A DNA stretch of 34,410 nt from a virus. Its lineage: Duplodnaviria > Heunggongvirae > Uroviricota > Caudoviricetes. The position numbers and the translations under genes were made by a program. The notes under the pieces were generated by a model. That model did no database searches. It was not told the DNA's origin and saw only the letters and a list, made by a program, of their open reading frames with translations. Shown here piece by piece: positions 583-33,048 of the stretch (the stretch's first letter is position 1; each line of letters starts with the position of its first letter). The DNA lies in the IMG/VR virus record IMGVR_UViG_2778261135_000004; one strand, written 5' to 3'.

Positions 583-1596
583 TTACTCTACTGTGGACAC
601 TGTGTGGACACTCTCAGCCTCAGTACCACCTCTTAGCGGATTAAGAGAAATGGCGTCCTGAAGGTACTCTGGCGCAAAATGAGCGTAAACCATAGTTTGC
701 TCAATCCGTGTGTGACCTAGTATCCGTTGTAGCGTGATAATACTTCCTCCATTAATCATGAAATGAGTGGCAAAGCTGTGCCTTAGTGCATGTGTGGCTT
801 GCCCCATTGGCAAATCCGGTTTTATTGCTTTCATTGTTCGTCTGAAGCGAGGGTAATCAGCATCAGGGAATAAAAAACCTCGTTTGTTATCCGCGATCAT
901 TTTGGCAACAGCCTCTGAGATCGGGACGGTGCGTGGTTTGTTTGTTTTCGTTTTAACAAACGTGACGCGGTTATGGATAATATTTTCTGCTTTCAAACGA
1001 GCTGCTTCTCCCCAACGTGCTCCAGTACTCAGGCAAAGAATCGCAATCTTTTTGTTGTCGCCGTCAAGAGCAGCAAGCAGTAAGGCAATTTCTTCCTGCG
1101 TGAGATAGCCTGTGTCTGGTTTTTCCTCCTTAAGCCTTTTTGTCCCTCTGATAGGGTGCTCACCAAAGAATAACTCCGCTTCAATCAGGGCTGTAAACAT
1201 GCCGCTAATACATGTTAAATCACGATTGATACTCGAAGGTTTAATACCCTGACTTCTTCGGGTGGCGCAGTACTGGCTGATAAGCGATTTCGTAATTTGA
1301 AATGCGCATGGGTCATTCGTTATTTTTGTGAAGATTTCAATTTTTCCAAGATTAGATCTCCCATGCTCTTCGTGTTTACCCTTTAAATCCCACCAGATCT
1401 GTGTCAGCTCCGACAGACGTCGCTTGTCTGTTGGTTTTGATAGCCATTCTTTATTGTGGTGGTTGTACAACGTGTATTTCTCGAAAGCGACAGCTTCGCT
1501 TTTCTTATCAAACTTCCTACGGATGCGTTTTCCATTACGTCCAGTAGGGCGGATGTCCACTTCATATCGACCATCATCGAGTTTTTTGATTGCCAT
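583..1596 (-). CDS. int: Tyrosine integrase (P2 Int-like), 337 aa
   Basis: 337-aa ORF adjacent to attL; C-terminal catalytic region with R..HxxR..Y motifs (ALRHSFATH..., MVYAHF); length and sequence recognisably P2 Int. Confidence 0.95.
   Translation of the reverse strand: MAIKKLDDGRYEVDIRPTGRNGKRIRRKFDKKSEAVAFEKYTLYNHHNKEWLSKPTDKRRLSELTQIWWDLKGKHEEHGRSNLGKIEIFTKITNDPCAFQITKSLISQYCATRRSQGIKPSSINRDLTCISGMFTALIEAELFFGEHPIRGTKRLKEEKPDTGYLTQEEIALLLAALDGDNKKIAILCLSTGARWGEAARLKAENIIHNRVTFVKTKTNKPRTVPISEAVAKMIADNKRGFLFPDADYPRFRRTMKAIKPDLPMGQATHALRHSFATHFMINGGSIITLQRILGHTRIEQTMVYAHFAPEYLQDAISLNPLRGGTEAESVHTVSTVE
592..611. promoter_or_regulatory. Putative Int arm-type binding sites (P' arm): two direct TGTGGACAC repeats 11 bp apart
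   Basis: Direct repeats TGTGGACAC at 592..600 and 603..611, one helical turn apart, next to the att core and overlapping the int 3' end; similar TGTGGNC repeats occur in the opposite arm at 32819..32837. Confidence 0.6.
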
Positions 1597-3893: not shown

Positions 3894-4165
3894 GCATTCG
3901 TATTGAAATTGGCGAACGTTATGTCGTTACCAGTGACAGCTTTCAGTTTATTCTCCACGAGAAAAAGAGAGCGGAAAGCGGTAAAAACGCCGGTCAGGAA
4001 TGGCTGGCGGTGGTTGGTTATTACCCGAAATTAAGCCAGCTCGTTTCCGGCCTGATGCATCACGATATTCTGACCGGAAGCGCAAAGTCTTTTGCTGATT
4101 TAAACGCGCAGGTTGAGCAACTCAGCAGGCGTTGTTCAGAGGCTTTTGGCTCATATGGCCGTTAA
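3890..4165 (+). CDS. Hypothetical early protein (P2 orf83-like), 91 aa
   Basis: Translationally coupled ORF immediately upstream of A; overlaps A start by 11 nt. Confidence 0.75.
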   Translation: MSIRIEIGERYVVTSDSFQFILHEKKRAESGKNAGQEWLAVVGYYPKLSQLVSGLMHHDILTGSAKSFADLNAQVEQLSRRCSEAFGSYGR

Positions 4166-6422
4166 AGCCTCCGGGCGTTTTGTCCCTCCGTCAGCATTTG
4201 CCGCAGGCACCGGTAAGACGTTTACCGGTGCTTATGCATGGAACGCGCCACGTGAGGCTGTCGGGCGCGAAAGACCCCTTACACGTGACGAGATGCGTCA
4301 GGTGCAAGGTGTTTTATCCACGATTAACCGCCTGCCTTACTTTTTGCGCTCGCTGTTTACTTCACGTTATGACTACATCCGGCGCAATAAAAGCCCGGTG
4401 CACGGGTTTTATTTCCTCACATCCACTTTTCAGCGTCGTTTATGGCCGCGCATTGAGCGTGTGAATCAGCGCCATGAAATGAACACCGACGCGTCGTTGC
4501 TGTTTCTGGCAGAGCGTGACCACTATGCGCGCCTGCCGGGAATGAATGACAAGGAGCTGAAAAAATTTGCCGCCCGTATCTCATCGCAGCTTTTCATGAT
4601 GTATGAGGAACTCAGCGATGCCTGGGTGGATGCGCATGGCGAAAAAGAATCGCTGTTTACGGATGAGGCGCAGGCTCACCTCTATGGTCATGTTGCTGGC
4701 GCTGCACGTGCTTTCAATATTTCCCCGCTCTACTGGAAAAAATACCGTAAAGGACAGATGACCACGAGGCAGGCATATTCTGCCATTGCCCGTCTGTTTA
4801 ACGATGAGTGGTGGACTCATCAGCTTAAAGGCCAGCGTATGCGCTGGCATGAGGCGTTACTGATCGCTGTCGGGGAGGTCAATAAAGACCGTTCTCCTTA
4901 TGCCAGTAAACATGCCATTCGTGATGTACGTGCACGCCGCCAGGCAAATCTGGAATTTCTTAAATCGTGTGACCTTGAAAACAGGGAAACCGGCGAGCGC
5001 ATCGACCTTATCAGTAAGGTGATGGGCAGTATTTCTAATCCTGAAATTCGCCGGATGGAGCTGATGAACACCATCGCCGGTATTGAGCGTTACGCCGCCG
5101 CAGAGGGTGATGTGGGGATGTTTATCACGCTGACCGCGCCGTCAAAGTATCATCCGACACGTCAGGTCAGAAAAGGCGAAAGTAAAACCGTCCAGCTAAA
5201 TCACGGCTGGAACGATGAGGCATTTAATCCAAAGGATGCGCAGCGTTATCTCTGCCGTATCTGGAGCCTGATGCGCACGGCATTCAAGGATAATGATTTA
5301 CAGGTCTACGGTTTGCGAGTCGTCGAGCCACACCACGACGGAACGCCGCACTGGCATATGATGCTTTTTTGTAATCCACGCCAGCGTAACCAGATTATCG
5401 AAATCATGCGTCGCTATGCGCTCAAAGAGGATGGCGACGAAAGAGGAGCCGCGCGAAACCGTTTTCAGGCAAAACATCTTAACCGGGGCGGTGCTGCGGG
5501 GTATATCGCGAAATACATCTCAAAAAACATCGATGGCTATGCACTGGATGGTCAGCTCGATAACGATACCGGCAGGCCGCTGAAAGATACTGCTGCGGCT
5601 GTTACCGCATGGGCGTCAACGTGGCGCATCCCGCAATTTAAAACGGTTGGCCTGCCGACAATGGGGGCTTACCGTGAACTACGCAAATTGCCTCGCGGCG
5701 TCAGCATTGCTGATGAGTTTGACGAACGCGTTGAGGCTGCACGTGCCGCCGCAGACAGTGGTGATTTTGCGTTGTATATCAGCGCGCAGGGTGGGGCAAA
5801 TGTTCCGCGTGATTGCCAGACTGTCAGAGTCGCCCGTAGCCCGTCGGATGACGTTAACGAGTACGAGGAAGAAGTCGAGAGAGTGGTCGGCATTTACGCG
5901 CCGCATCTCGGCGCGCGTCATATTCATATCACCAGAACGACGGACTGGCGCATTGTGCCGAAAGTTCCGGTCGTTGAGCCTTTGACTTTAAAAAGCGGCA
6001 TCGCTGCGCCTCGGAGTCCTGTCAATAACTGTGGAAAGCTCACCGGTGGTGATACTTCGTTACCGGCTCCCACACCTTCTGAGCACGCTGCAGCAGTGCT
6101 TAATCTGGTTGATGACGGTGTCATCGAATGGAGTGACCCGGAGGTCGTGAGGGCGCTCAGGGGCGCATTAAAACACGACCTGAGAACACCAAACCGTCAG
6201 CAAAGAAACGGAAGCCCGTTAAAACCACATGAAATTGCACCATCGGCCAGACTGACCCGGTCGGAAAGAATGCAAATCACCCGTATCCGCGTTGACCTTG
6301 CTCAGAACGGTATCAGGCCGCAGCGATGGGAGCTTGAGGCGCTGGCGCGTGGCGCGACTGTAAATTATGACGGGAAACAATTCATGTATCTGGTCGCTGA
6401 TGAGTGGATAGGTTTTAGGTGA
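4155..6422 (+). CDS. A: Replication initiation endonuclease A (rolling-circle initiator), ~755 aa
   Basis: Begins MAVKASGRFVPP... at ATG 4155 (ORF track start 4113 is an upstream extension); contains the HxH-type motif (TPHWHMMLF) and the Tyr-containing region (YIAKYISKNIDGY) expected of P2 gpA-family initiators. Confidence 0.9.
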   Translation: MAVKASGRFVPPSAFAAGTGKTFTGAYAWNAPREAVGRERPLTRDEMRQVQGVLSTINRLPYFLRSLFTSRYDYIRRNKSPVHGFYFLTSTFQRRLWPRIERVNQRHEMNTDASLLFLAERDHYARLPGMNDKELKKFAARISSQLFMMYEELSDAWVDAHGEKESLFTDEAQAHLYGHVAGAARAFNISPLYWKKYRKGQMTTRQAYSAIARLFNDEWWTHQLKGQRMRWHEALLIAVGEVNKDRSPYASKHAIRDVRARRQANLEFLKSCDLENRETGERIDLISKVMGSISNPEIRRMELMNTIAGIERYAAAEGDVGMFITLTAPSKYHPTRQVRKGESKTVQLNHGWNDEAFNPKDAQRYLCRIWSLMRTAFKDNDLQVYGLRVVEPHHDGTPHWHMMLFCNPRQRNQIIEIMRRYALKEDGDERGAARNRFQAKHLNRGGAAGYIAKYISKNIDGYALDGQLDNDTGRPLKDTAAAVTAWASTWRIPQFKTVGLPTMGAYRELRKLPRGVSIADEFDERVEAARAAADSGDFALYISAQGGANVPRDCQTVRVARSPSDDVNEYEEEVERVVGIYAPHLGARHIHITRTTDWRIVPKVPVVEPLTLKSGIAAPRSPVNNCGKLTGGDTSLPAPTPSEHAAAVLNLVDDGVIEWSDPEVVRALRGALKHDLRTPNRQQRNGSPLKPHEIAPSARLTRSERMQITRIRVDLAQNGIRPQRWELEALARGATVNYDGKQFMYLVADEWIGFR

Positions 6423-6440
6423 TGTAGAAATTAATGCGGT

Positions 6441-6465
6441 TAAAAAGTAAGAAACTTACTTTTTG
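6441..6465 (+). terminator. Putative intrinsic terminator downstream of A
   Basis: AAAAAGTAAG-AAA-CTTACTTTTT hairpin with T-run about 20 nt after the A stop codon; AT-rich stem, so weak. Confidence 0.4.
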
Positions 6466-6688
6466 GAGTATAAACATTTTAGTTGTCGAGTAAGGAGCCT
6501 CTGCGATATGGCAATTTCATGTGGTGATATTATGATTTCAAACTTGATTATTAGTATTGCAAGATAAGTTTGCAGTAGGTAACGAGCGTGTAAGGTATTG
6601 TGAGTTTTGTTGTTGTGCATTATATTGATTTTCTTAAGTTTATTGTGTTGGTTGTAATTGAAACTTAACAATTAATTAAGGAAAAAGA

Positions 6689-9040
6689 ATGTTAAAGAGG
6701 ATTAAATTAATAGAGGGCGTAGGTAACTATATTAAAGCTCGCTCCAGCTCTTATGAGTTTAATAACATGAATGTTATCTACGGTGAAAATAGACATGGTA
6801 AAAGTACTCTTTGTGACATCTTTTATTCTTTATCAACGAATACTCCTGAATTGGTTGTTAACAGAAAGACTATTCTGGAGGGAGATGGTGAAGTAATTCC
6901 AAGGATTGATTTACAATTCACAGAGGGGAGTTCAAATAGAGTTGTTTCATTTTATGTAGATAAATGGTCAGGATTACCACCACCAGATTCTAAATTATAT
7001 ATCTTTGATCAGAGTTTTGTTCATAGAAATGTAATGGCAGGTACAGTATCTAATCGAGAAAACTCTGAATGTGTTACTGCATTTATTTTGGGTGAAGACA
7101 ATGTTGCTGCTTTTGAAGCTCTGGAAAAGGAGAATGCAGAATTAAGAAGTTTAAGAGGTTCGTTAAGAAGTAAAAAAGATTTAATTCAATCACACCAAAT
7201 TGATAACGTTGATGAGTATGCTAATAGTGAGCCTGTCATAACAGATTATGATTGCGTTGACTCAAAAATAAATGAGCTTATTAAGTCAATACAAGAAGTT
7301 GAAAAGAAGAAAACAGCCGTCAAATATATTAAAGCAAGGCCGTTGTTTAATTTAATTAACTGTACACCAAAGTTGAAAGATATTTCAATTAGGGTTAATA
7401 AATGTCTTTCTTCTGGAATGGCTACAATTCATGACGATGCACTTTCTATATTAGAGCGACATAAAGAGAGAATAAAGGCTCACGATCATTTTAATGGATG
7501 GATCTCAAACGGGCTTGGTATGGCCACAGAAATATGTCCATTTTGCGGTCAGAGTATATCAGGAGAATCAAAAGAGCTGATTAGTGCTTATAAGGATTCA
7601 TTTGATGAGTCATTTATGCGCTTTATTGAAAGTACAAAAAAAGAATTAAAAGAAATAAGGCGGATTGATTTTTCATTTATCTCATTAAATGTAATTGATG
7701 ATGTACATAGCAAAAACATTGATGTTTTGTCACAGTATTTAGAGAATGAGATAAAAAATGAATTAAGTAATAATGGAAGGTTTGAGTCATGTTGTGCTAT
7801 TTATAATCAAGTAAGAAATGATATATTGACATTTAACCAAGATCTACTTAAGGCTCAGCAATCACTGGAGTGTATATATGATGAGAAAGAATTAGCTGTA
7901 TACAACGAAATGAAGGGGTTTGATTTTTCGGCTCTTCTACAATTTGAGCATGAAATTCATGGCAAATTGGAATCATACAATAGCATTATTAATCAGCTCA
8001 ATGATGAGTTGGTGAAGTATAAAGAAAGTATCAATTCCACCAAATTAGATGTATTACTGGGAATCTATCAAAAAGATCTTGAGCAGTGGGAATCTAATAA
8101 AAAAAGATTATTGCTTGAGCCAGATTGTCGAGAATATCTTGAACTGAAAAAAGAAATAGATATTAGGGAAAAAAACTATAATGAGAAGAAGAAAACATTA
8201 GAGGAATGCCAGGAGCAATTTTTAAACAAATATTTTGAGCACATTAATTCTCTGTTCTGTTCTGTTGGATCTAGTAAATTTTCTATAAATAAAAAAATAA
8301 ACAGGCAGGGTACAAAAATTGTTTATGAACTTGACGTTTCATTTAATGGGAAGGCAGTTGGAAAAAACAAACTTAATTGTTTGTTTAGTGAGTCAGATCG
8401 CCGAGCTTTGGCTTTGTGCATCTTTCTTTCTAAAATTTACTTGTTACCTAATGATGAGAAATCAAAAGCTATTCTTATTATGGATGATCCTGTAACAAGT
8501 TTTGATGAGGAAAGAATATCTTGTATTTTGCAGAAGTTGTATGAATTACAGCCTTATGTAAAACAGATGTTTATTACTACACACTATAAAGGAATGGCAG
8601 CAAAGACATCTCAAAAATTTAATTTGGATAGAATTCTTCAGATCAAACAAGGTCAAGACGGTTCTAATTTTGAACCGCTGAAGGTAGAGCAATTAATAGC
8701 TTCAGACCATGAGAGATCCTATGAGAGGATTGTTGATTTTATAAATGGTGTGGATACTGATAAGACAATAATACTATCTTTAAGGCCATATCTTGAATCA
8801 GAATTCCGTTCTCGTTATCGCAAACAACTGACAGACTGCAACTTAAATGATAGAACGGATTTTTCTGTGTGTATTAATCGACTGGCTGAAGATGGTATTT
8901 TGGAAGAGGAGACGGCCAGAAGAATTCATGGGTTTAGAACTGCACTCAATGAGCCTATGCACGTTATCCGTGAATGGACTGATGAAGATATGAAAAGTTA
9001 TGCGCAGGATATGCTACGCCTAATATATACAGAACTTTAA
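6689..9040 (+). CDS. Cargo gene at the tin/old hotspot: Rad50/RloC-like ABC ATPase with CxxC coiled-coil insert and uncharacterised C-terminal domain, 783 aa (candidate anti-phage defence protein)
   Basis: Walker A GENRHGKST (aa 32-40); long K/E-rich coiled-coil insert with CPFC (aa 283-286); signature-like SESDRRALAL (aa 567-576); Walker B/D-loop ILIMDDPVTSFD (aa 595-606); H-loop TTHY (aa 631-634); ~150-aa C-terminal domain without obvious TOPRIM motifs. Strongly AT-rich relative to the prophage backbone; RBS AAGGAAAAAGA upstream. Confidence 0.8.
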   Translation: MLKRIKLIEGVGNYIKARSSSYEFNNMNVIYGENRHGKSTLCDIFYSLSTNTPELVVNRKTILEGDGEVIPRIDLQFTEGSSNRVVSFYVDKWSGLPPPDSKLYIFDQSFVHRNVMAGTVSNRENSECVTAFILGEDNVAAFEALEKENAELRSLRGSLRSKKDLIQSHQIDNVDEYANSEPVITDYDCVDSKINELIKSIQEVEKKKTAVKYIKARPLFNLINCTPKLKDISIRVNKCLSSGMATIHDDALSILERHKERIKAHDHFNGWISNGLGMATEICPFCGQSISGESKELISAYKDSFDESFMRFIESTKKELKEIRRIDFSFISLNVIDDVHSKNIDVLSQYLENEIKNELSNNGRFESCCAIYNQVRNDILTFNQDLLKAQQSLECIYDEKELAVYNEMKGFDFSALLQFEHEIHGKLESYNSIINQLNDELVKYKESINSTKLDVLLGIYQKDLEQWESNKKRLLLEPDCREYLELKKEIDIREKNYNEKKKTLEECQEQFLNKYFEHINSLFCSVGSSKFSINKKINRQGTKIVYELDVSFNGKAVGKNKLNCLFSESDRRALALCIFLSKIYLLPNDEKSKAILIMDDPVTSFDEERISCILQKLYELQPYVKQMFITTHYKGMAAKTSQKFNLDRILQIKQGQDGSNFEPLKVEQLIASDHERSYERIVDFINGVDTDKTIILSLRPYLESEFRSRYRKQLTDCNLNDRTDFSVCINRLAEDGILEEETARRIHGFRTALNEPMHVIREWTDEDMKSYAQDMLRLIYTEL

Positions 9041-9057
9041 GGCTTATAATTTGCATA

Positions 9058-9083
9058 CCAGTGCATGTATTTGCATGCACTGG
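9058..9083 (+). terminator. Perfect 10-bp inverted repeat (CCAGTGCATG / CATGCACTGG), possible terminator of the cargo gene
   Basis: Hairpin 18 nt after the cargo gene stop; a T-run (TTTTT) follows about 10 nt after the stem, so not a canonical terminator geometry. Confidence 0.35.
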
Positions 9084-9171
9084 CTGTTGGGGATTTTTAT
9101 CGTTCATAGTTTATCCTGCCTGTTTTAGAGAAGGTGCATTGTTGCATTAAAACCGCCCCATGAAGCGGGCG

Positions 9172-9190
9172 GGCGAGGCGGGGAAAGCAC
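9172..9190. other. cos: cos site (19-nt cohesive-end sequence GGCGAGGCGGGGAAAGCAC)
   Basis: Exact match to the P2 cohesive-end sequence as I recall it, located between the right-end cargo and Q, where cos lies in a P2 prophage. Confidence 0.8.
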
Positions 9191-9242
9191 TGCGCGCTGT
9201 TTTGTGCGGTGGTGAGTGTGTGAGGGCGTGATGACGGGGTGT

Positions 9243-9269: not shown

Positions 9270-10304
9270 TCAGCCGTTGTCAGTGTCCAGTGAGTAGTTT
9301 TTAAAGCGGATGACCTCCTGACCGAGCCAGCCGTTTATCTCGCGGATCCTGTCCTGTAACGGGATAAGCTCATTGCGGACAAAGACCTTTGCCACTTTCT
9401 CAATATCTCCCAGTGACCCGACGTTCTCCGGCTTGCCGCCCATCAACTGAAAGGGGATACGGTGCGCGTCCAGCAGGTCAGCGGCGCTGGCTTTTTTGAT
9501 ATTAAAAAAATCGTCCTTCGTTGCCACTTCACTGAGCGGGATAATTTTAATGCCGTCAGCTTTCCCCTGCGGGGCATAGAGAAACAGATTTTTAAAGTTG
9601 TTGCGACCTTTCGACTTAACCATGTTTTCGCGAAGCATTTCGATATCGTTGCGATCCTGCACGGCATCGGTGACGTACATGATGTATCCGGCATGTGCGC
9701 CATTTTCGTAATACTTGCGGCGGAACAGCGTAGCTGATTCATTCAGCCAGGCAGAATTAAGGGCGCTGAGATATTCCGGCAGGCCGTACAGCTCCTGATT
9801 AATATCCGGCTCCAGCAGGTGAAACACGGAGCCGGGCGCGAAAGGTGTCGGCTCGTTGAAGGACGGCACCCACCAGTAAACATCCTCCTCAACACCACGG
9901 CGGGTATATTTTGCCGGTGAGGTTTCCAGTCTGATGACCTTACCGGTGGTGCTGTAGCGCTTTTCCAGAAACGCATTACCGAACACCAGAAAATCCAGCA
10001 CAAAGCGGCTGAAATCCTGCTGGGAAAGCCACGGGTGCGGAATAAACGTTGAAGCCAGAATATTACGTTTGACGTAAATCGGTGAGCTGTGATGTACGGC
10101 AGCACGCAGGCTTTTTGCCAGACCGGTAAAGCTGACCGGTGGCTCATACCATCTGCCGTTACTGATGCACTCGACGTAATCCAGAATGTCACGGCGGTCG
10201 AGTACCGGCACCGGCTCACCAAAGGTGAATGCCTCCATTTTCGGGGCGCTGGCGGTGATTGTTTTTGCCGCAGGTTGCGGTGTTTTCCCTTTTTTCTTGC
10301 TCAT
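9270..10304 (-). CDS. Q: Portal protein Q, 344 aa
   Basis: 344-aa ORF; P2 gpQ length and sequence; start ATG overlaps the P stop (ATGA). Confidence 0.95.
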   Translation of the reverse strand: MSKKKGKTPQPAAKTITASAPKMEAFTFGEPVPVLDRRDILDYVECISNGRWYEPPVSFTGLAKSLRAAVHHSSPIYVKRNILASTFIPHPWLSQQDFSRFVLDFLVFGNAFLEKRYSTTGKVIRLETSPAKYTRRGVEEDVYWWVPSFNEPTPFAPGSVFHLLEPDINQELYGLPEYLSALNSAWLNESATLFRRKYYENGAHAGYIMYVTDAVQDRNDIEMLRENMVKSKGRNNFKNLFLYAPQGKADGIKIIPLSEVATKDDFFNIKKASAADLLDAHRIPFQLMGGKPENVGSLGDIEKVAKVFVRNELIPLQDRIREINGWLGQEVIRFKNYSLDTDNG

Positions 10305-23990: not shown

Positions 23991-25787
23991 CTACGATTTA
24001 ATATCAAATAAAGAACTTTCACCTTTGAATATATTCACCCAATGGTATTGTATGTATTTCATACGGTTTGTGTTTCCGTTGACGTAAGGAATGGTTCTTC
24101 TTTCGATTGTAGAATACATTTGCGCAAGGTGTGTGGTCATTTTTTTATCTCGGCTAATTGCAACTTTTCCATCTGAACGAATGGCAATGAAACCATTTTC
24201 GAAAAGTGAATCACATATTGCACATTGCAACATTGCTATGTTATCGAAATCTGCTCGCTCTTCATGTGTGCATTTAGATCTAGGTTTCACATGCGCAGCA
24301 ATGAGAATAGCATGCGGCCATGAATTTCCGCAAATCTCACAGACCCCTACATTATTTTCATTGCTATATAACAGCGATTGTTGAAGGAGCAGGTATTCTC
24401 GAAGTAATGCTTGTTCTGCACGAGTCTTTCTTAAAAAGGTTCCCAGCACATCTAGTGAATCCAATTCGCTTCTGATGTCTGTTATTTTTCTTCTTATACT
24501 ATCTATTCTTTCCATTCTGGTATCGATAGGCCGAGCCACTTGCTTGGTTGGAATATATTCATCATCAAGTGGTTTGTAGTAATCATTTCGTCTCCCGCCA
24601 CCTTCTTTGTAATACAAGGTTGGATAACTAAAAATCAATGATTTGAAAGCTTGCGGGATTTTCCCTTTTAATTCCCTACCAATGCTCATTGAGTCTAAGG
24701 GGCCACCATTTGATTTTATAGCATTTAAGGCAATAACTTGATAATGGATAGTACCACTGACATCTTCCAATTGGAGTTCTGAATAAAGGCTATCTCCAGG
24801 TATTCTATAACCGGGTGTTGACTCTTGTAGTAATCCAGTTTTCAAACAATAATCGTCCAGAGCACCATCGGCGCTTTCTAGAAGCTCTAGGCAGGGGGGT
24901 TGACGGGCATCTGCACTACGACGGAAGTTGTGTGTAAGGGCCCTTTTTAAAGCAGATATAACTCTTTCAACTTTTAGTGGGTTTTTATAATGAATAAAAA
25001 TTGGTTTGAGAATTCGACTAACTCTTTCGTCACGAGACGTGAAAGCATAAAAACGTCCATTAGAAATAGATAAAAAATCTTCTTCAGTTGAAATTAAGTC
25101 AGATATATATTGCACCTTAATTTCATCAGGAATTTCCCTAATAAAACCAGGAGGGTCTGACTCCCATGAACAAACAGCAAGTTTTTCTATTGAAAATAAA
25201 CCACCAAAATACGTTGATATCTTTCCGGCATATGTGATTAAATCGCTAGTAATGGATTTGGGATTATGATTTTCTTCCAGTATGATTTGATGTCCATTAT
25301 ATTCATGAAATTTGAAATGTGCATTTATTTCGAATGATTTTGCTAACTGAGTAACTATAGGAAGATAAATGTTACTATCAATTACACCTGCTGCTATAAG
25401 AGTGCTTTGGACTTTATTTGAAAATACTGGTTTTTTAGTGGTCGTTATTTTTCCGATTAATATTTCAATCAATTTCTTCAATTGAATAAGGTCAGTTTTC
25501 GCAGCTAGGGTAATCGTATCACCTGCTACCAAGCCTCGGTTGAGCCGACTTAGTTCTGACGGCAAGTCTTGATTTAAGAATTTTGATATGATCTGACGTG
25601 CTCTTTCTCTCGTGACCTCTTTCTTGAGTTCAGGTAGTTTACCCAGCGTATCTAAGGTCAAGTTTCTGCTAGAAGATGTCTGAGTAAAGTGTGCTTTCAA
25701 TATGATCTTAGTAGTTTCTGATGTATTCTTCTTTTGATAAATGCGATCAATCAGTTCTGTAATAATTTCTTGGTAGGTTTTACTCAT
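23991..25787 (-). CDS. Cargo gene at the G-FI (Z/fun) hotspot: ~598-aa protein with C-terminal HNH-type nuclease motif and N-terminal HTH-like segment (candidate anti-phage defence nuclease)
   Basis: C-terminal motif CEICGNSWPHAILIAAHVKP...ADFDNIAMLQCAICDSLFENGFIAI (CxxC ... AAH ... N ... CxxC ... F-x-NG; HNH/His-Me finger, HNH_2-like by eye); N-terminal segment TLDTLGKLPELKKEVTRERARQIISKFL resembles sigma-70 region-4-type HTH. Start taken at ATG 25787; the track start 25799 is a GTG. Strongly AT-rich. Confidence 0.8.
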   Translation of the reverse strand: MSKTYQEIITELIDRIYQKKNTSETTKIILKAHFTQTSSSRNLTLDTLGKLPELKKEVTRERARQIISKFLNQDLPSELSRLNRGLVAGDTITLAAKTDLIQLKKLIEILIGKITTTKKPVFSNKVQSTLIAAGVIDSNIYLPIVTQLAKSFEINAHFKFHEYNGHQIILEENHNPKSITSDLITYAGKISTYFGGLFSIEKLAVCSWESDPPGFIREIPDEIKVQYISDLISTEEDFLSISNGRFYAFTSRDERVSRILKPIFIHYKNPLKVERVISALKRALTHNFRRSADARQPPCLELLESADGALDDYCLKTGLLQESTPGYRIPGDSLYSELQLEDVSGTIHYQVIALNAIKSNGGPLDSMSIGRELKGKIPQAFKSLIFSYPTLYYKEGGGRRNDYYKPLDDEYIPTKQVARPIDTRMERIDSIRRKITDIRSELDSLDVLGTFLRKTRAEQALLREYLLLQQSLLYSNENNVGVCEICGNSWPHAILIAAHVKPRSKCTHEERADFDNIAMLQCAICDSLFENGFIAIRSDGKVAISRDKKMTTHLAQMYSTIERRTIPYVNGNTNRMKYIQYHWVNIFKGESSLFDIKS

Positions 25788-26173
25788 AGCAATCCACACT
25801 CATAAAGTACTGTAAAATGATCCGACTGATTTCTGTAATCATCTCTCATCGGTCCATACCTAACTTGCGGCTAATGAAATGAATATAAAATCATCTAATG
25901 CCTTTTGCTAATTTGATAATGCTATATTTCTTGGAAAATTACACTCTAAAAGGTTAAGTCTGCTCCTCGCTCAAAGCAGACTGTCAGATTTGATAGCGTT
26001 TGGGCTATGTAAATTGTCAGTTGGAAAATGAGTGAGTGCAAATCATGACAGGCAGGCGGATTACCCGCTTTTTCTTTGTCTGTTGTTTCATCCACTGACC
26101 AGCCAGGTCAAATAGCGTCTCATGCACTGCCCAACAGAAAATAGTTGCACCCATTAACCACGGAGTTAAACGG

Positions 26174-27364
26174 ATGAGTGACTATCATCACGGCGTGCAG
26201 GTGCTGGAGATTAACGACGGCACCCGCGTCATTTCCACCGTATCCACTGCCATTGTCGGCTTGGTCTGCACGGCCAGCGATGCGGATGCGGAAACCTTCC
26301 CCCTCAATAAACCTGTGCTGATTACCAATGTGCAGAGTGCAATTGCAAAGGCTGGTAAAAAAGGCACGCTGGCGGCATCGTTGCAGGCCATCGCTGACCA
26401 GTCAAAACCGGTCACCGTTGTTGTGCGTGTGGAAGACGGCACCGGCGACGACGAGGAAACGAAACTCGCGCAGACCGTATCCAATATCATCGGCACCACC
26501 GACGAAAACGGTCAGTACACCGGACTGAAAGCCCTGCTGGCGGCGGAGTCGGTAACCGGTGTTAAACCGCGTATTCTCGGTGTGCCGGGACTGGACACCA
26601 AAGAGGTGGCTGTTGCACTGGCATCAGTCTGTCAGAAGCTGCGCGCTTTCGGGTATATCAGCGCATGGGGCTGTAAGACCATTTCCGAGGTGAAAGCCTA
26701 CCGCCAGAATTTCAGCCAGCGTGAGCTGATGGTCATCTGGCCGGATTTCCTCGCATGGGATACGGTCACCAGCACCACCGCCACCGCGTATGCCACCGCC
26801 CGTGCGCTGGGTCTGCGTGCCAGAATCGACCAGGAGCAGGGCTGGCATAAAACGCTGTCCAATGTCGGGGTGAACGGTGTTACCGGCATCAGCGCATCTG
26901 TATTCTGGGATTTGCAGGAGTCCGGCACCGATGCTGACCTGCTTAACGAGTCAGGCGTCACTACGCTGATTCGCCGTGACGGTTTCCGATTCTGGGGTAA
27001 CCGTACCTGCTCTGATGACCCGCTTTTCCTCTTTGAAAACTACACCCGCACCGCGCAGGTGCTGGCCGATACGATGGCTGAGGCGCACATGTGGGCGGTG
27101 GACAAGCCCATCACCGCAACGCTGATTCGCGACATCGTTGACGGCATCAATGCCAAATTCCGTGAGCTGAAAACAAACGGCTATATCGTGGATGCGACCT
27201 GCTGGTTCAGCGAAGAATCCAACGATGCGGAAACCCTCAAGGCCGGAAAACTGTATATCGACTACGACTATACCCCGGTGCCTCCTCTCGAAAACCTGAC
27301 CCTGCGCCAGCGTATCACCGATAAATACCTGGCAAATCTGGTCACTTCGGTTAACAGCAATTAA
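26174..27364 (+). CDS. FI: Tail sheath protein FI, 396 aa
   Basis: 396-aa ORF; P2 gpFI length and sequence. Confidence 0.95.
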   Translation: MSDYHHGVQVLEINDGTRVISTVSTAIVGLVCTASDADAETFPLNKPVLITNVQSAIAKAGKKGTLAASLQAIADQSKPVTVVVRVEDGTGDDEETKLAQTVSNIIGTTDENGQYTGLKALLAAESVTGVKPRILGVPGLDTKEVAVALASVCQKLRAFGYISAWGCKTISEVKAYRQNFSQRELMVIWPDFLAWDTVTSTTATAYATARALGLRARIDQEQGWHKTLSNVGVNGVTGISASVFWDLQESGTDADLLNESGVTTLIRRDGFRFWGNRTCSDDPLFLFENYTRTAQVLADTMAEAHMWAVDKPITATLIRDIVDGINAKFRELKTNGYIVDATCWFSEESNDAETLKAGKLYIDYDYTPVPPLENLTLRQRITDKYLANLVTSVNSN

Positions 27365-27376
27365 GGAGACTGACCG

Positions 27377-27895
27377 ATGGCAATGCCGCGCAAACTCAAG
27401 TTAATGAACGTCTTTCTGAACGGCTACAGCTATCAGGGCGTTGCAAAGTCCGTCACGCTGCCAAAACTGACCCGTAAGCTCGAAAACTATCGCGGTGCGG
27501 GGATGAACGGCAGCGCACCGGTAGACCTCGGCCTTGATGACGATGCGCTGTCAATGGAGTGGTCGCTCGGGGGCTTCCCGGATTCGGTTATCTGGGAGCT
27601 TTACGCCGCAACCGGTGTGGATGCCGTGCCGATTCGTTTTGCAGGCTCTTACCAGCGCGACGATACCGGCGAAACGGTGGCCGTCGAAGTGGTCATGCGT
27701 GGACGTCAGAAAGAAATCGACACCGGCGAGGGTAAACAGGGAGAAGACACCGAGTCGAAAATCTCCGTGGTCTGCACCTATTTCCGGCTGACGATGGACG
27801 GTAAGGAGCTGGTCGAAATCGACACCATCAACATGATTGAGAAGGTGAACGGCGTCGACCGGCTGGAGCAACACCGCCGAAATATCGGCCTGTGA
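27377..27895 (+). CDS. FII: Tail tube protein FII, 172 aa
   Basis: 172-aa ORF after FI; P2 gpFII length. Confidence 0.95.
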   Translation: MAMPRKLKLMNVFLNGYSYQGVAKSVTLPKLTRKLENYRGAGMNGSAPVDLGLDDDALSMEWSLGGFPDSVIWELYAATGVDAVPIRFAGSYQRDDTGETVAVEVVMRGRQKEIDTGEGKQGEDTESKISVVCTYFRLTMDGKELVEIDTINMIEKVNGVDRLEQHRRNIGL

Positions 27896-27951
27896 TTTTC
27901 ATCCGGTCAGCCTGGCTGACCGGTTAACCCTGATTCAGAAGTGAGAAAACC

Positions 27952-28227
27952 ATGAACAAAGAAAATGTGATTACCCTGGACAATCCGGTCAAGCGTGGTG
28001 AGCAGGTTATCGAACAGGTCACGCTGATGAAACCCAATGCCGGGACGCTGCGCGGTGTCAGTCTGGCTGCGGTCGCGAACTCCGAAGTCGATGCACTGAT
28101 TAAAGTGCTGCCGCGCATGACGGCACCGATGCTGACCGAACAGGAGGTCGCCGCGCTGGAACTGCCTGACCTTGTGGCGCTGGCCGGTAAGGTGGTCGGT
28201 TTTTTGTCGCCGAACTCGGTGCAGTGA
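27952..28227 (+). CDS. E: Tail assembly chaperone E, 91 aa
   Basis: 91-aa ORF between tube and tape-measure genes; ends shortly after a T7G slippery run. Confidence 0.9.
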   Translation: MNKENVITLDNPVKRGEQVIEQVTLMKPNAGTLRGVSLAAVANSEVDALIKVLPRMTAPMLTEQEVAALELPDLVALAGKVVGFLSPNSVQ

Positions 28228-32877: not shown

Positions 32878-32904
32878 AAAAAATAAGCCCGTGTAAGGGA
32901 GATT
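32878..32904. repeat. attR: attR core (27-bp direct repeat AAAAAATAAGCCCGTGTAAGGGAGATT)
   Basis: Exact copy of 477..503; marks the right prophage-host junction. Confidence 0.9.
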
Positions 32905-33048
32905 ACACAGGCTAAGGAGGTGGTTCCTGGTACAGCTAGCATTTTATGGGTTATGTTTTTCAGCGAAACGGATGATAACCTTAATAAATGCAGCTGTATG
33001 TGATCGGTTTCTAAGAATTTTCCATCCGGGAAAAATAATCGAAATTAA

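Follow-up and report, generated by a model that had tools for sequence, protein, structure and literature searches.

RloC was described by Davidov and Kaufmann (2008; PMC2610378) as a distant homologue of PrrC, and is defined by ABC ATPase motifs, a coiled-coil insert bearing a CX2C zinc hook, and a C-proximal Arg-X3-Glu-X36-52-His motif. The anticodon-nuclease activity of the Geobacillus kaustophilus protein (GkaRloC) depends on each of R692, E696 and H737 (PMC2610378). The GkaRloC nuclease is silent without ATP and DNA, is activated by DNA together with ATP hydrolysis in the head (K44, D572), and is both de-repressed and released from its ATPase dependence by mutations in the hook. The nucleases of PrrC and RloC have been classified as atypical HEPN domains by Anantharaman et al. 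(2013), who also discussed ABC-HEPN fusions carried by prophages, with APECO1_4465 as the type example, and the occurrence of RloC-like genes beside restriction-modification (R-M) and Fic/Doc genes. Here we describe a 783-aa gene in IMG/VR record IMGVR_UViG_2778261135_000004, a P2-like prophage of 34,410 nt (the whole stretch analyzed, hereafter the window). The gene lies between replication gene A (gpA) and the cohesive-end site cos, a site that in phage P2 itself holds the exclusion genes old and tin, and is a divergent, unannotated member of the RloC-like/PDC-S06 group rather than a new kind of system.

Both the locus and the family have a history, and the novelty attached to this gene by an initial annotation of the window was overstated. 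Its family is PDC-S06, ABC-HEPN fusions had been discussed by 2013, and a different RloC orthologue, from Escherichia coli APEC O1, has been on record at the same locus since 2008. That protein, YP_852004 (738 aa), is RloC orthologue no. 51 in Table S1 of Davidov and Kaufmann, where its flanks are given as "phage replication initiation" and "capsid" genes (PMC2610378). We placed it (as WP_000423308.1) at NC_008563 925932-928148, in a P2-like prophage where it is flanked by gpA and the portal gene; it probably belongs to the APECO1_4465 family of Anantharaman et al. (2013). It has a CPFC hook and the motif R646-x3-E650...NRGSH690, matches two PADLOC models, PDC-S06 sub-model PDLC04886 (E=1e-254) and that for PrrC (E=1e-12), and is only 24% identical to the window protein, over the hook, the coiled coil and the C-terminal ATPase half only. 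The gpA-gpQ region was reported by Rousset et al. (2022) as a hotspot with 1,650 gene arrangements, and Table S5A of that study lists the exact window protein, WP_128999349, under the name "AAA_13." A further RloC-like gene (773 aa; CEFC hook, RKLLEAF...NKYSH) adjoins the portal gene in the IMG/VR contigs L029 (5920..8241) and L031 (5176..7497), distant P2-like viral contigs whose portal and terminase proteins are 53% and 57% identical to those of the window. RloC-like genes therefore recur at the gpA-portal hotspot. A 2025 preprint cites a PDC-S06 AAA-ATPase of E. coli as a probable true defense protein, and a 2026 preprint on P2/P4 hotspots makes no mention of RloC or AAA_13.

An ABC ATPase with a hook insert and a C-terminal HEPN domain

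The segment between gene A and cos (6423-9171) has a GC content of 33.1%, against 50.8% for the whole window; values along 6501-9000 are 0.31-0.36, and both flanks lie at 0.50-0.57. A single long open reading frame (ORF) separates gene A from the portal gene. It opens with an ATG, 6-7 nt downstream of an AAGGA Shine-Dalgarno sequence, and differs from gene A in GC (0.329 versus 0.534) and in GC at third codon positions (GC3; 0.265 versus 0.544). The initial annotation had interpreted the segment as foreign, AT-rich cargo at the A-cos hotspot, filled by one plus-strand gene, and both parts of that interpretation agree with the composition, the ORF and the borders, with gpA to the left and cos and the portal gene to the right (Table 1).

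Full-length similarity places the encoded protein in a known defense-candidate family. The PADLOC hidden Markov model for PDC-S06 sub-model PDLC04895 is matched at E=1.6e-153, with residues 1-783 aligned to positions 1-780 of 784, and the Pfam AAA_13 profile is matched at E=1.6e-33 over residues 12-634, leaving the last 140 profile positions unmatched. Given these two matches and the residue conservation described below, the motifs of the protein are not chance occurrences. Lesser PADLOC matches were to other PDC-S06 sub-models, to LmuB (E=1.6e-19) and to AriA; NCBIfam gave weak RecF and ABC matches, and a scan of PHROGs gave no useful match. In the PADLOC scan, the protein matched no Old, PrrC, PD-T4, PD-T7 or PD-Lambda model. 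Identity with one of the PD-T4, PD-T7 or PD-Lambda systems of Vassallo was rejected on this ground, and that paper holds nothing that corresponds to the gene.

Conservation was assessed with 49 homologues, of which 33 were aligned, at identities of 19-82%. The set includes an 82%-identical E. coli allele, proteins at 19-41% identity and metagenomic sequences; named entries among the homologues come from Vibrio, Shewanella, Aliikangiella, Zhongshania and Ignavibacteriales. Invariant residues include G37 and K38 of Walker A; C283, P284, C286 and Q288 at the hook; S567 of the signature-like segment; D599, D600, S604 and D606 of Walker B and the D-loop; the linchpin H632; and R699 in the C-terminal domain. 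The ABC motifs that RloC requires are present (Walker A, the signature, Walker B with the D-loop, and the linchpin His), and each motif listed by the initial annotation lies where it had been placed. The signature-like SESDRRALAL segment matches the C-terminal halves of RecF and Rad50.

An AlphaFold2 model of the full protein (mean predicted local distance difference test score [pLDDT] 82.9) comprises a beta-rich head (residues 1-135 and 527-665), the long helical insert that divides it, and an all-helical C-terminal domain. The CPFC motif falls in or at the edge of a low-confidence stretch (pLDDT <50 at residues 270-285) of the insert, the place of a predicted central CX2C zinc hook within the ATPase domain. 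Foldseek against the PDB returned Rad50 first (7zr1_C, E=1.4e-11), followed by SMC heads, Lamassu LmuB (from LmuACB), JetC (from JetABC) and RecN. The family sequence profile likewise matches the C-terminal halves of RecF and Rad50, and weakly matches a 140-residue Rad50 chain (6zff_A, E=0.0026) over query residues 228-342, the segment that holds the hook. The proposal of an ABC ATPase head split by a CxxC-bearing coiled coil is thus upheld by the structural match and by the weak profile match to the hook region.

These results bear directly on whether the gene is a diverged homologue of P2 Old, an ABC ATPase with a TOPRIM nuclease. The gene occupies the locus of old, and its product begins with an ABC ATPase. 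Against this, Pfam, NCBIfam and PADLOC gave no TOPRIM or Old match, as the initial annotation had anticipated in seeing no obvious TOPRIM motifs; the C-terminal domain is all-helical with a HEPN fold; and a long insert with coiled coil and hook interrupts the head. To our knowledge, Old has no such insert. We rejected the Old/TOPRIM identity on these fold and motif results and regard it as already refuted.

The C-terminal domain adopts the helical-bundle fold of the HEPN superfamily, and its R699-x3-E703...N754-x3-H758 site is conserved. Its structural neighbors include mRNases such as HepT, LsoA and RnlA. With R699-X3-E703-X54-H758, the domain has what we count as the Arg-X3-Glu...His triad of RloC. 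Of the two His residues that the initial annotation had put forward, H758 (EPMH) is conserved among the aligned homologues and H747 (RIHGF) is not.

A link to RloC, still indirect as far as characterized proteins are concerned, came through relatives found by tblastn against plasmids. In addition to two close homologues, from Yersinia (38.6%) and Psychrobacter (36%), this search yielded many AAA_13 proteins at 21-25% identity, with alignments that run through the R-x3-E helix. Several of them adjoin R-M systems, of type I in the case of Ketogulonicigenium and of type II in those of Methylocystis and Sphingobium, and these uncharacterized restriction-linked proteins have CPFC hooks and the motifs LRPILEAxxR...NRFHH. 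A profile-profile comparison (hhalign) of the C-terminal domains of the window protein's family with theirs gave 97.7% probability (E=1.6e-12, 131 columns), with R-x3-E and N-x3-H in register and LRPYLE aligned with LRPILE. The N-x3-H pattern recurs as NRFHH in Ketogulonicigenium, NRGSH in APEC O1 and NKYSH in L029. The best PADLOC sub-model of the restriction-linked proteins is also PDLC04895 (E=1e-50 to 1e-70), and the profile matches suggest that the PDC-S06 label covers RloC-like proteins. What the initial annotation had called a speculative PrrC/RloC-like HEPN site gains support from the conservation and from the hhalign result.

Predicted mode of action

We propose, on the basis of the GkaRloC experiments, that the window protein acts as a stand-alone RloC-type tRNase, a HEPN nuclease gated by DNA and ATP and silenced by its hook, that aborts infection. 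In a resting lysogen, zinc hooks would keep the dimer silent. Upon infection or DNA damage, DNA such as ends or breaks would bind the ATPase heads, and ATP hydrolysis would then free the HEPN nuclease. The freed nuclease would cleave tRNA anticodon loops and halt translation, such that the infected cell yields no phage and the lysogen population, with its prophage, is protected. The architecture, the conserved ATPase, hook and nuclease residues, the HEPN fold, the solitary mobile context and the repeated appearance of RloC-like genes at this hotspot are computational findings; analysis of them makes the general mechanism probable in our judgment, and we place less confidence in the exact RNA substrate than in the mechanism as a whole.

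Several observations weigh against this assignment. Foldseek of the C-terminal domain alone points to the right family at a non-significant E of 0.18. The canonical HEPN motif is Rx4-6H, whereas the spacing here is the longer R750-x7-H758, in which R750 is not conserved throughout. Glu-to-His spacing, at 54, is two residues past the published 36-52 range; by our own count, it is X53/54 in the restriction-linked relative from Ketogulonicigenium. A profile of the C-terminal domain, searched against 1.84 billion protein representatives, retrieved only its own clade (350 hits), the PADLOC PrrC model did not match the protein even at E<=1, and hhalign against the single APEC O1 C-terminal sequence was insignificant. 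Finally, the 2012 RloC paper had not established whether canonical RloC protects a natural host against phage or what triggers it in vivo, and the validated systems in the text of Rousset et al. (2022) are of other types, with the WP_128999349 gene unmentioned among them.

Full-length hits of the C-terminal profile are ~740-800 aa. Hits of ~400 aa were considered as possible PrrC-sized proteins and rejected, since the five inspected are N-terminally truncated metagenomic fragments; a word-indexed search with the same profile returned five fragments only.

The self-contained nature of the clade, together with the blindness of the PrrC model to the protein, also fits an ABC-gated HEPN defense RNase that has another substrate (mRNA, rRNA or other parts of tRNA) and possibly a trigger unlike that of RloC. 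The R-x3-N-x3-H motif, which departs from Rx4-6H, and the mRNases among the structural neighbors favor this alternative as well. However, RloC-like proteins, in which the triad is needed for anticodon cleavage, have both R-x3-E...N-x3-H and the entire architecture in common with the window protein, and we consider a different substrate rather unlikely. A related suggestion, which we advance only tentatively, is that the clade is a distinct ABC-hook-HEPN branch whose nuclease has drifted past the PrrC model and perhaps has its own RNA target or trigger. The clade comprises ~350 clusters at 50% identity, with a uniform ~780-aa architecture and the nuclease motif R-x3-E...R-x3-N-x3-H. If the branch is distinct in this way, the Rad50-like head may, for example, be triggered by sensing the DNA ends, linear or cohesive, that a superinfecting phage brings in.

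Distribution and genetic setting

Of 5426 complete E. coli genomes, 2157 have the flanking backbone but only 23 have the gene, which is always chromosomal. Twelve carriers have it at a DNA identity of at least 99.5% and 11 at ~86%; the latter, second allele (82% protein identity) occurs, for example, in an O25:H4 strain, and the carriers also include O25b:H4-ST131 entries. Public names are solely "AAA family ATPase" or "hypothetical protein." A tblastn search of 50,697 deposited phage genomes found no relative, and the gene is therefore known only from prophages and viral contigs.

Homologues elsewhere occupy a variety of neighborhoods, defense islands among them. The Vibrio homologue lies in an island with nSTAND3, helicases, VspR and a NERD-kinase-helicase, and that of Aliikangiella is near a Shedu-type gene. 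Another, in an element resembling integrative and conjugative elements, has genes for a TrwC relaxase, a coupling protein and a HindIII R-M system nearby, the first two being conjugation genes. In Ignavibacteriales (P0040), a type IIG R-M gene is followed by the homologue and then by a RhuM-Fic gene, which is exactly the RloC context described by Anantharaman et al. (2013). One homologue sits between toxin-antitoxin pairs, others are on plasmids, and that of Zhongshania is alone among metabolic genes. Across the seven chromosomal or metagenomic and two plasmid contexts inspected, there was no conserved neighbor, and we therefore conclude that the gene works alone.

This solitary context informs two further alternatives. 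The first is that the protein handles DNA for the prophage in the manner of Rad50 or SMC proteins (replication, recombination or maintenance), with its HEPN-like domain serving as a non-catalytic binding module. The top structural matches are indeed Rad50 and SMC heads, some HEPN domains, such as that of MtlR, are non-catalytic, and the gene is located between a replication gene and cos. Yet no Mre11/SbcD partner gene occurs in the window or at the inspected homologue loci, nor is a kleisin-like partner present; occurrence in just 23 of the 2157 flank-bearing genomes marks the gene as dispensable cargo; the polar R/E/N/H residues are conserved; and homologues reside in defense islands and beside R-M and Fic genes. 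We judge a DNA-handling role improbable. The second alternative is that the protein is one part of a multi-gene system, such as Lamassu LmuB or a retron- or Septu-type ATPase, and needs a partner from another locus in order to be active. This would accord with the secondary PADLOC match to LmuB and with the LmuACB and JetABC structures returned by Foldseek, but the LmuB model match spans only the ATPase and coiled coil, none of the nine contexts has a conserved neighbor, and the protein bears an effector domain of its own, which together make a missing partner very improbable. The stand-alone RloC-type tRNase remains our preferred assignment.

Within the cassette, a 46-nt block of the leader (6571-6616) is identical in the two alleles, which elsewhere differ by ~14%, and overlaps a promoter-like site; this block may serve to regulate the cassette. 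A possible second cassette gene, a 71-aa minus-strand ORF at 6456..6671, was rejected because two 1-bp indels break it in the O25:H4 allele. To the right, the alleles are identical from the hairpin at 9153..9172 onward. The end of the segment at 9171, as delimited by the initial annotation, is the edge of cos, since positions 9172-9190 hold GGCGAGGCGGGGAAAGCAC, which we take to be the P2 cos sequence.

Table 1. Positions of features in the window, unless another record is named
Feature	Position	Strand	Details
Integrase	583..1596	-	Within the window
P2 gene A, replication endonuclease; left hotspot border	4113..6422	+	Pfam Phage_GPA E=1.3e-122; RefSeq relatives "replication endonuclease"
Cassette leader, AT-rich, non-coding, 266 bp	6423..6688	+	Promoter-like site 6598-6626; Shine-Dalgarno AAGGA
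RloC-like gene (ABC ATPase head, coiled-coil/zinc-hook insert, C-terminal HEPN domain)	6689..9040	+	783 aa
Walker A/P-loop GENRHGKST, aa 32-40	6782..6808	+	G37, K38 invariant
Long helical (coiled-coil) insert splitting the ATPase head, residues ~136-525 (~390 residues)	7094..8263	+	AlphaFold2 secondary structure; Foldseek to Rad50, SMC, LmuB, JetC
Predicted zinc-hook motif CPFC, aa 283-286	7535..7546	+	C283, P284, C286, Q288 invariant; non-helical, low-confidence part of insert
ABC signature-like SESDRRALAL, aa 567-576	8387..8416	+	S567 invariant; E568, S569, D570, R572 at least 90% conserved
Walker B ILIMDD (aa 595-600, nt 8471-8488) and D-loop PVTSFD	8471..8506	+	D599, D600, S604, D606 invariant
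H-loop TTHY, aa 630-633	8576..8587	+	H632 invariant
HEPN-fold helical domain, residues ~666-783; predicted RNase effector	8684..9037	+	
R699-x3-E703 in LRPYLESE (aa 698-705); predicted catalytic Arg/Glu	8783..8797	+	R699 invariant; E703 at least 90% conserved
N754-x3-H758 in LNEPMH (aa 753-758); predicted catalytic His	8948..8962	+	N754, H758 at least 90% conserved
GC-rich hairpin, right cassette edge, adjoining cos	9153..9172	.	Minus-strand terminator-like match
cos, 19-nt cohesive-end sequence	9172..9190	.	Read off the sequence
Portal gene Q; right hotspot border	9270..10304	-	Pfam Phage_portal; RefSeq annotation
APEC O1 RloC orthologue, on L016 (NC_008563)	25932..28148	-	738 aa, gpA-portal hotspot

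Several features of the surrounding prophage deserve mention. A terminase gene and a tail-fiber assembly gene are likewise present in the window. The ORF of gene A begins mechanically at a TTG (4113), and the start annotated in RefSeq relatives corresponds to 4155. About half of the 23 carrier chromosome records begin at this gene A start codon (window 4155; record position 2146 equals window 6300), these assemblies apparently having been rotated to the prophage "replication" gene instead of dnaA. The IS21-family element ISEc12 lies inside gene A in strain LS45 (L001 285..2587) and beside the portal gene in the O25:H4 strain (L002 7292..9093), so at least some carrier prophages are defective.

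Immediately right of cos, at 9197/9198, the two other aligned carriers have a 91-bp segment (TGGCGGTGGTGCTGATTTTATTTTTTCAGCGTCTGAGCG...) that is missing from the window. Matching E. coli records number 2154, and the best-ranked ones are all split into two aligned pieces at this junction, which implies an insertion relative to the window. Absence of the 91 bp from the cos-flanking region might affect packaging.

A second AT-rich island (GC 0.31-0.40) follows the tail-fiber assembly gene, at what is presumably the position of the P2 Z/fun hotspot. It contains a 601-aa ORF (23991..25799, minus strand) whose C-terminal region resembles HNH/type II restriction endonucleases (PADLOC HNH E=5e-9; Pfam HNH_2 at threshold) and which is probably a further defense cargo gene. 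Near the right end of the window, a full-length gene for the small RNA CyaR/RyeE (32881..32966, minus strand; Rfam RF00112, 100.7 bits) presumably marks host DNA at the end of the prophage.

Significance and comparison with known systems

The main value of the locus is that the triggering of RloC-type nucleases could be studied in E. coli, where it is tractable. An active gene would make an RloC-type protein from an E. coli prophage available to such work, which matters because the 2012 paper left protective role and trigger unproven; if the clade is indeed a distinct branch, its presence in an E. coli P2 prophage would give the first host-phage pair, both natural and tractable, in which to study the in vivo activation of RloC-type nucleases. 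Activity would also imply that the gpA-cos hotspot can exchange Old, with its TOPRIM effector, for an ABC-ATPase-gated nuclease with a HEPN effector that follows the same logic. The gene, present in a small share of E. coli genomes, is worth counting in phage-resistance prediction.

Among ATPases without a HEPN effector, the window protein resembles Rad50/SbcC in its head fold, its coiled-coil insert and its CPxCG hook motif; it differs in having no Mre11/SbcD partner, an additional C-terminal HEPN domain, and a much shorter, asymmetric insert. Lamassu LmuB differs in its genetic company, as neither an adjacent LmuA effector nor LmuC accompanies the window gene. With P2 Old, as with Gabija GajA and PARIS AriA/B, the protein has in common an ABC ATPase sensor that gates a nuclease, and its gene occupies the locus of P2 old. 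Old has a TOPRIM effector, whereas that of the window protein is HEPN and its ATPase includes a hook insert like that of Rad50. P2 Old is reported to act as a tRNase in a 2026 preprint. Because Old is thus an ABC-ATPase-gated nuclease and a reported tRNase, a swap at this locus would keep the logic and change the effector domain.

PrrC likewise joins an ABC-type NTPase to a HEPN-class nuclease at its C terminus, the latter bearing an Arg-Glu-His triad. Unlike the 783-aa window protein with its ~390-residue insert, PrrC is ~400 aa and has no coiled-coil or hook insert, and it is always found within the type Ic R-M (hsd) locus that silences it, whereas the window gene is flanked by gpA and by cos and the portal gene. 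PDC-S06 differs as a description, being a "phage defence candidate" label without an assigned mechanism.

The closest counterparts are RloC proteins themselves. The APEC O1 orthologue resides in the same gpA-portal hotspot, is also a PDC-S06 protein, and has the same CPFC hook and a matching R646-x3-E650...N-x3-H690 site; it is encoded on the opposite strand, belongs to sub-model PDLC04886 and, unlike the window protein, matches the PrrC model (1e-12). GkaRloC, compared through its published features, is of similar length (804 aa versus 783) and has the same order of Walker A, CxxC-hook coiled coil, signature, Walker B, H-loop and C-terminal nuclease domain, with R692, E696 and H737 near the positions of R699, E703 and H758. 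As in RloC, the gene is stand-alone, AT-rich, composed of low-usage codons and laterally transferred. The window protein departs from RloC in its Glu-His spacing (54, against 40 in GkaRloC and 36-52 in the 2008 set), in a His context of N-x-P-x-H rather than S-H, and in having no HMMER link from its C-terminal domain to PrrC.

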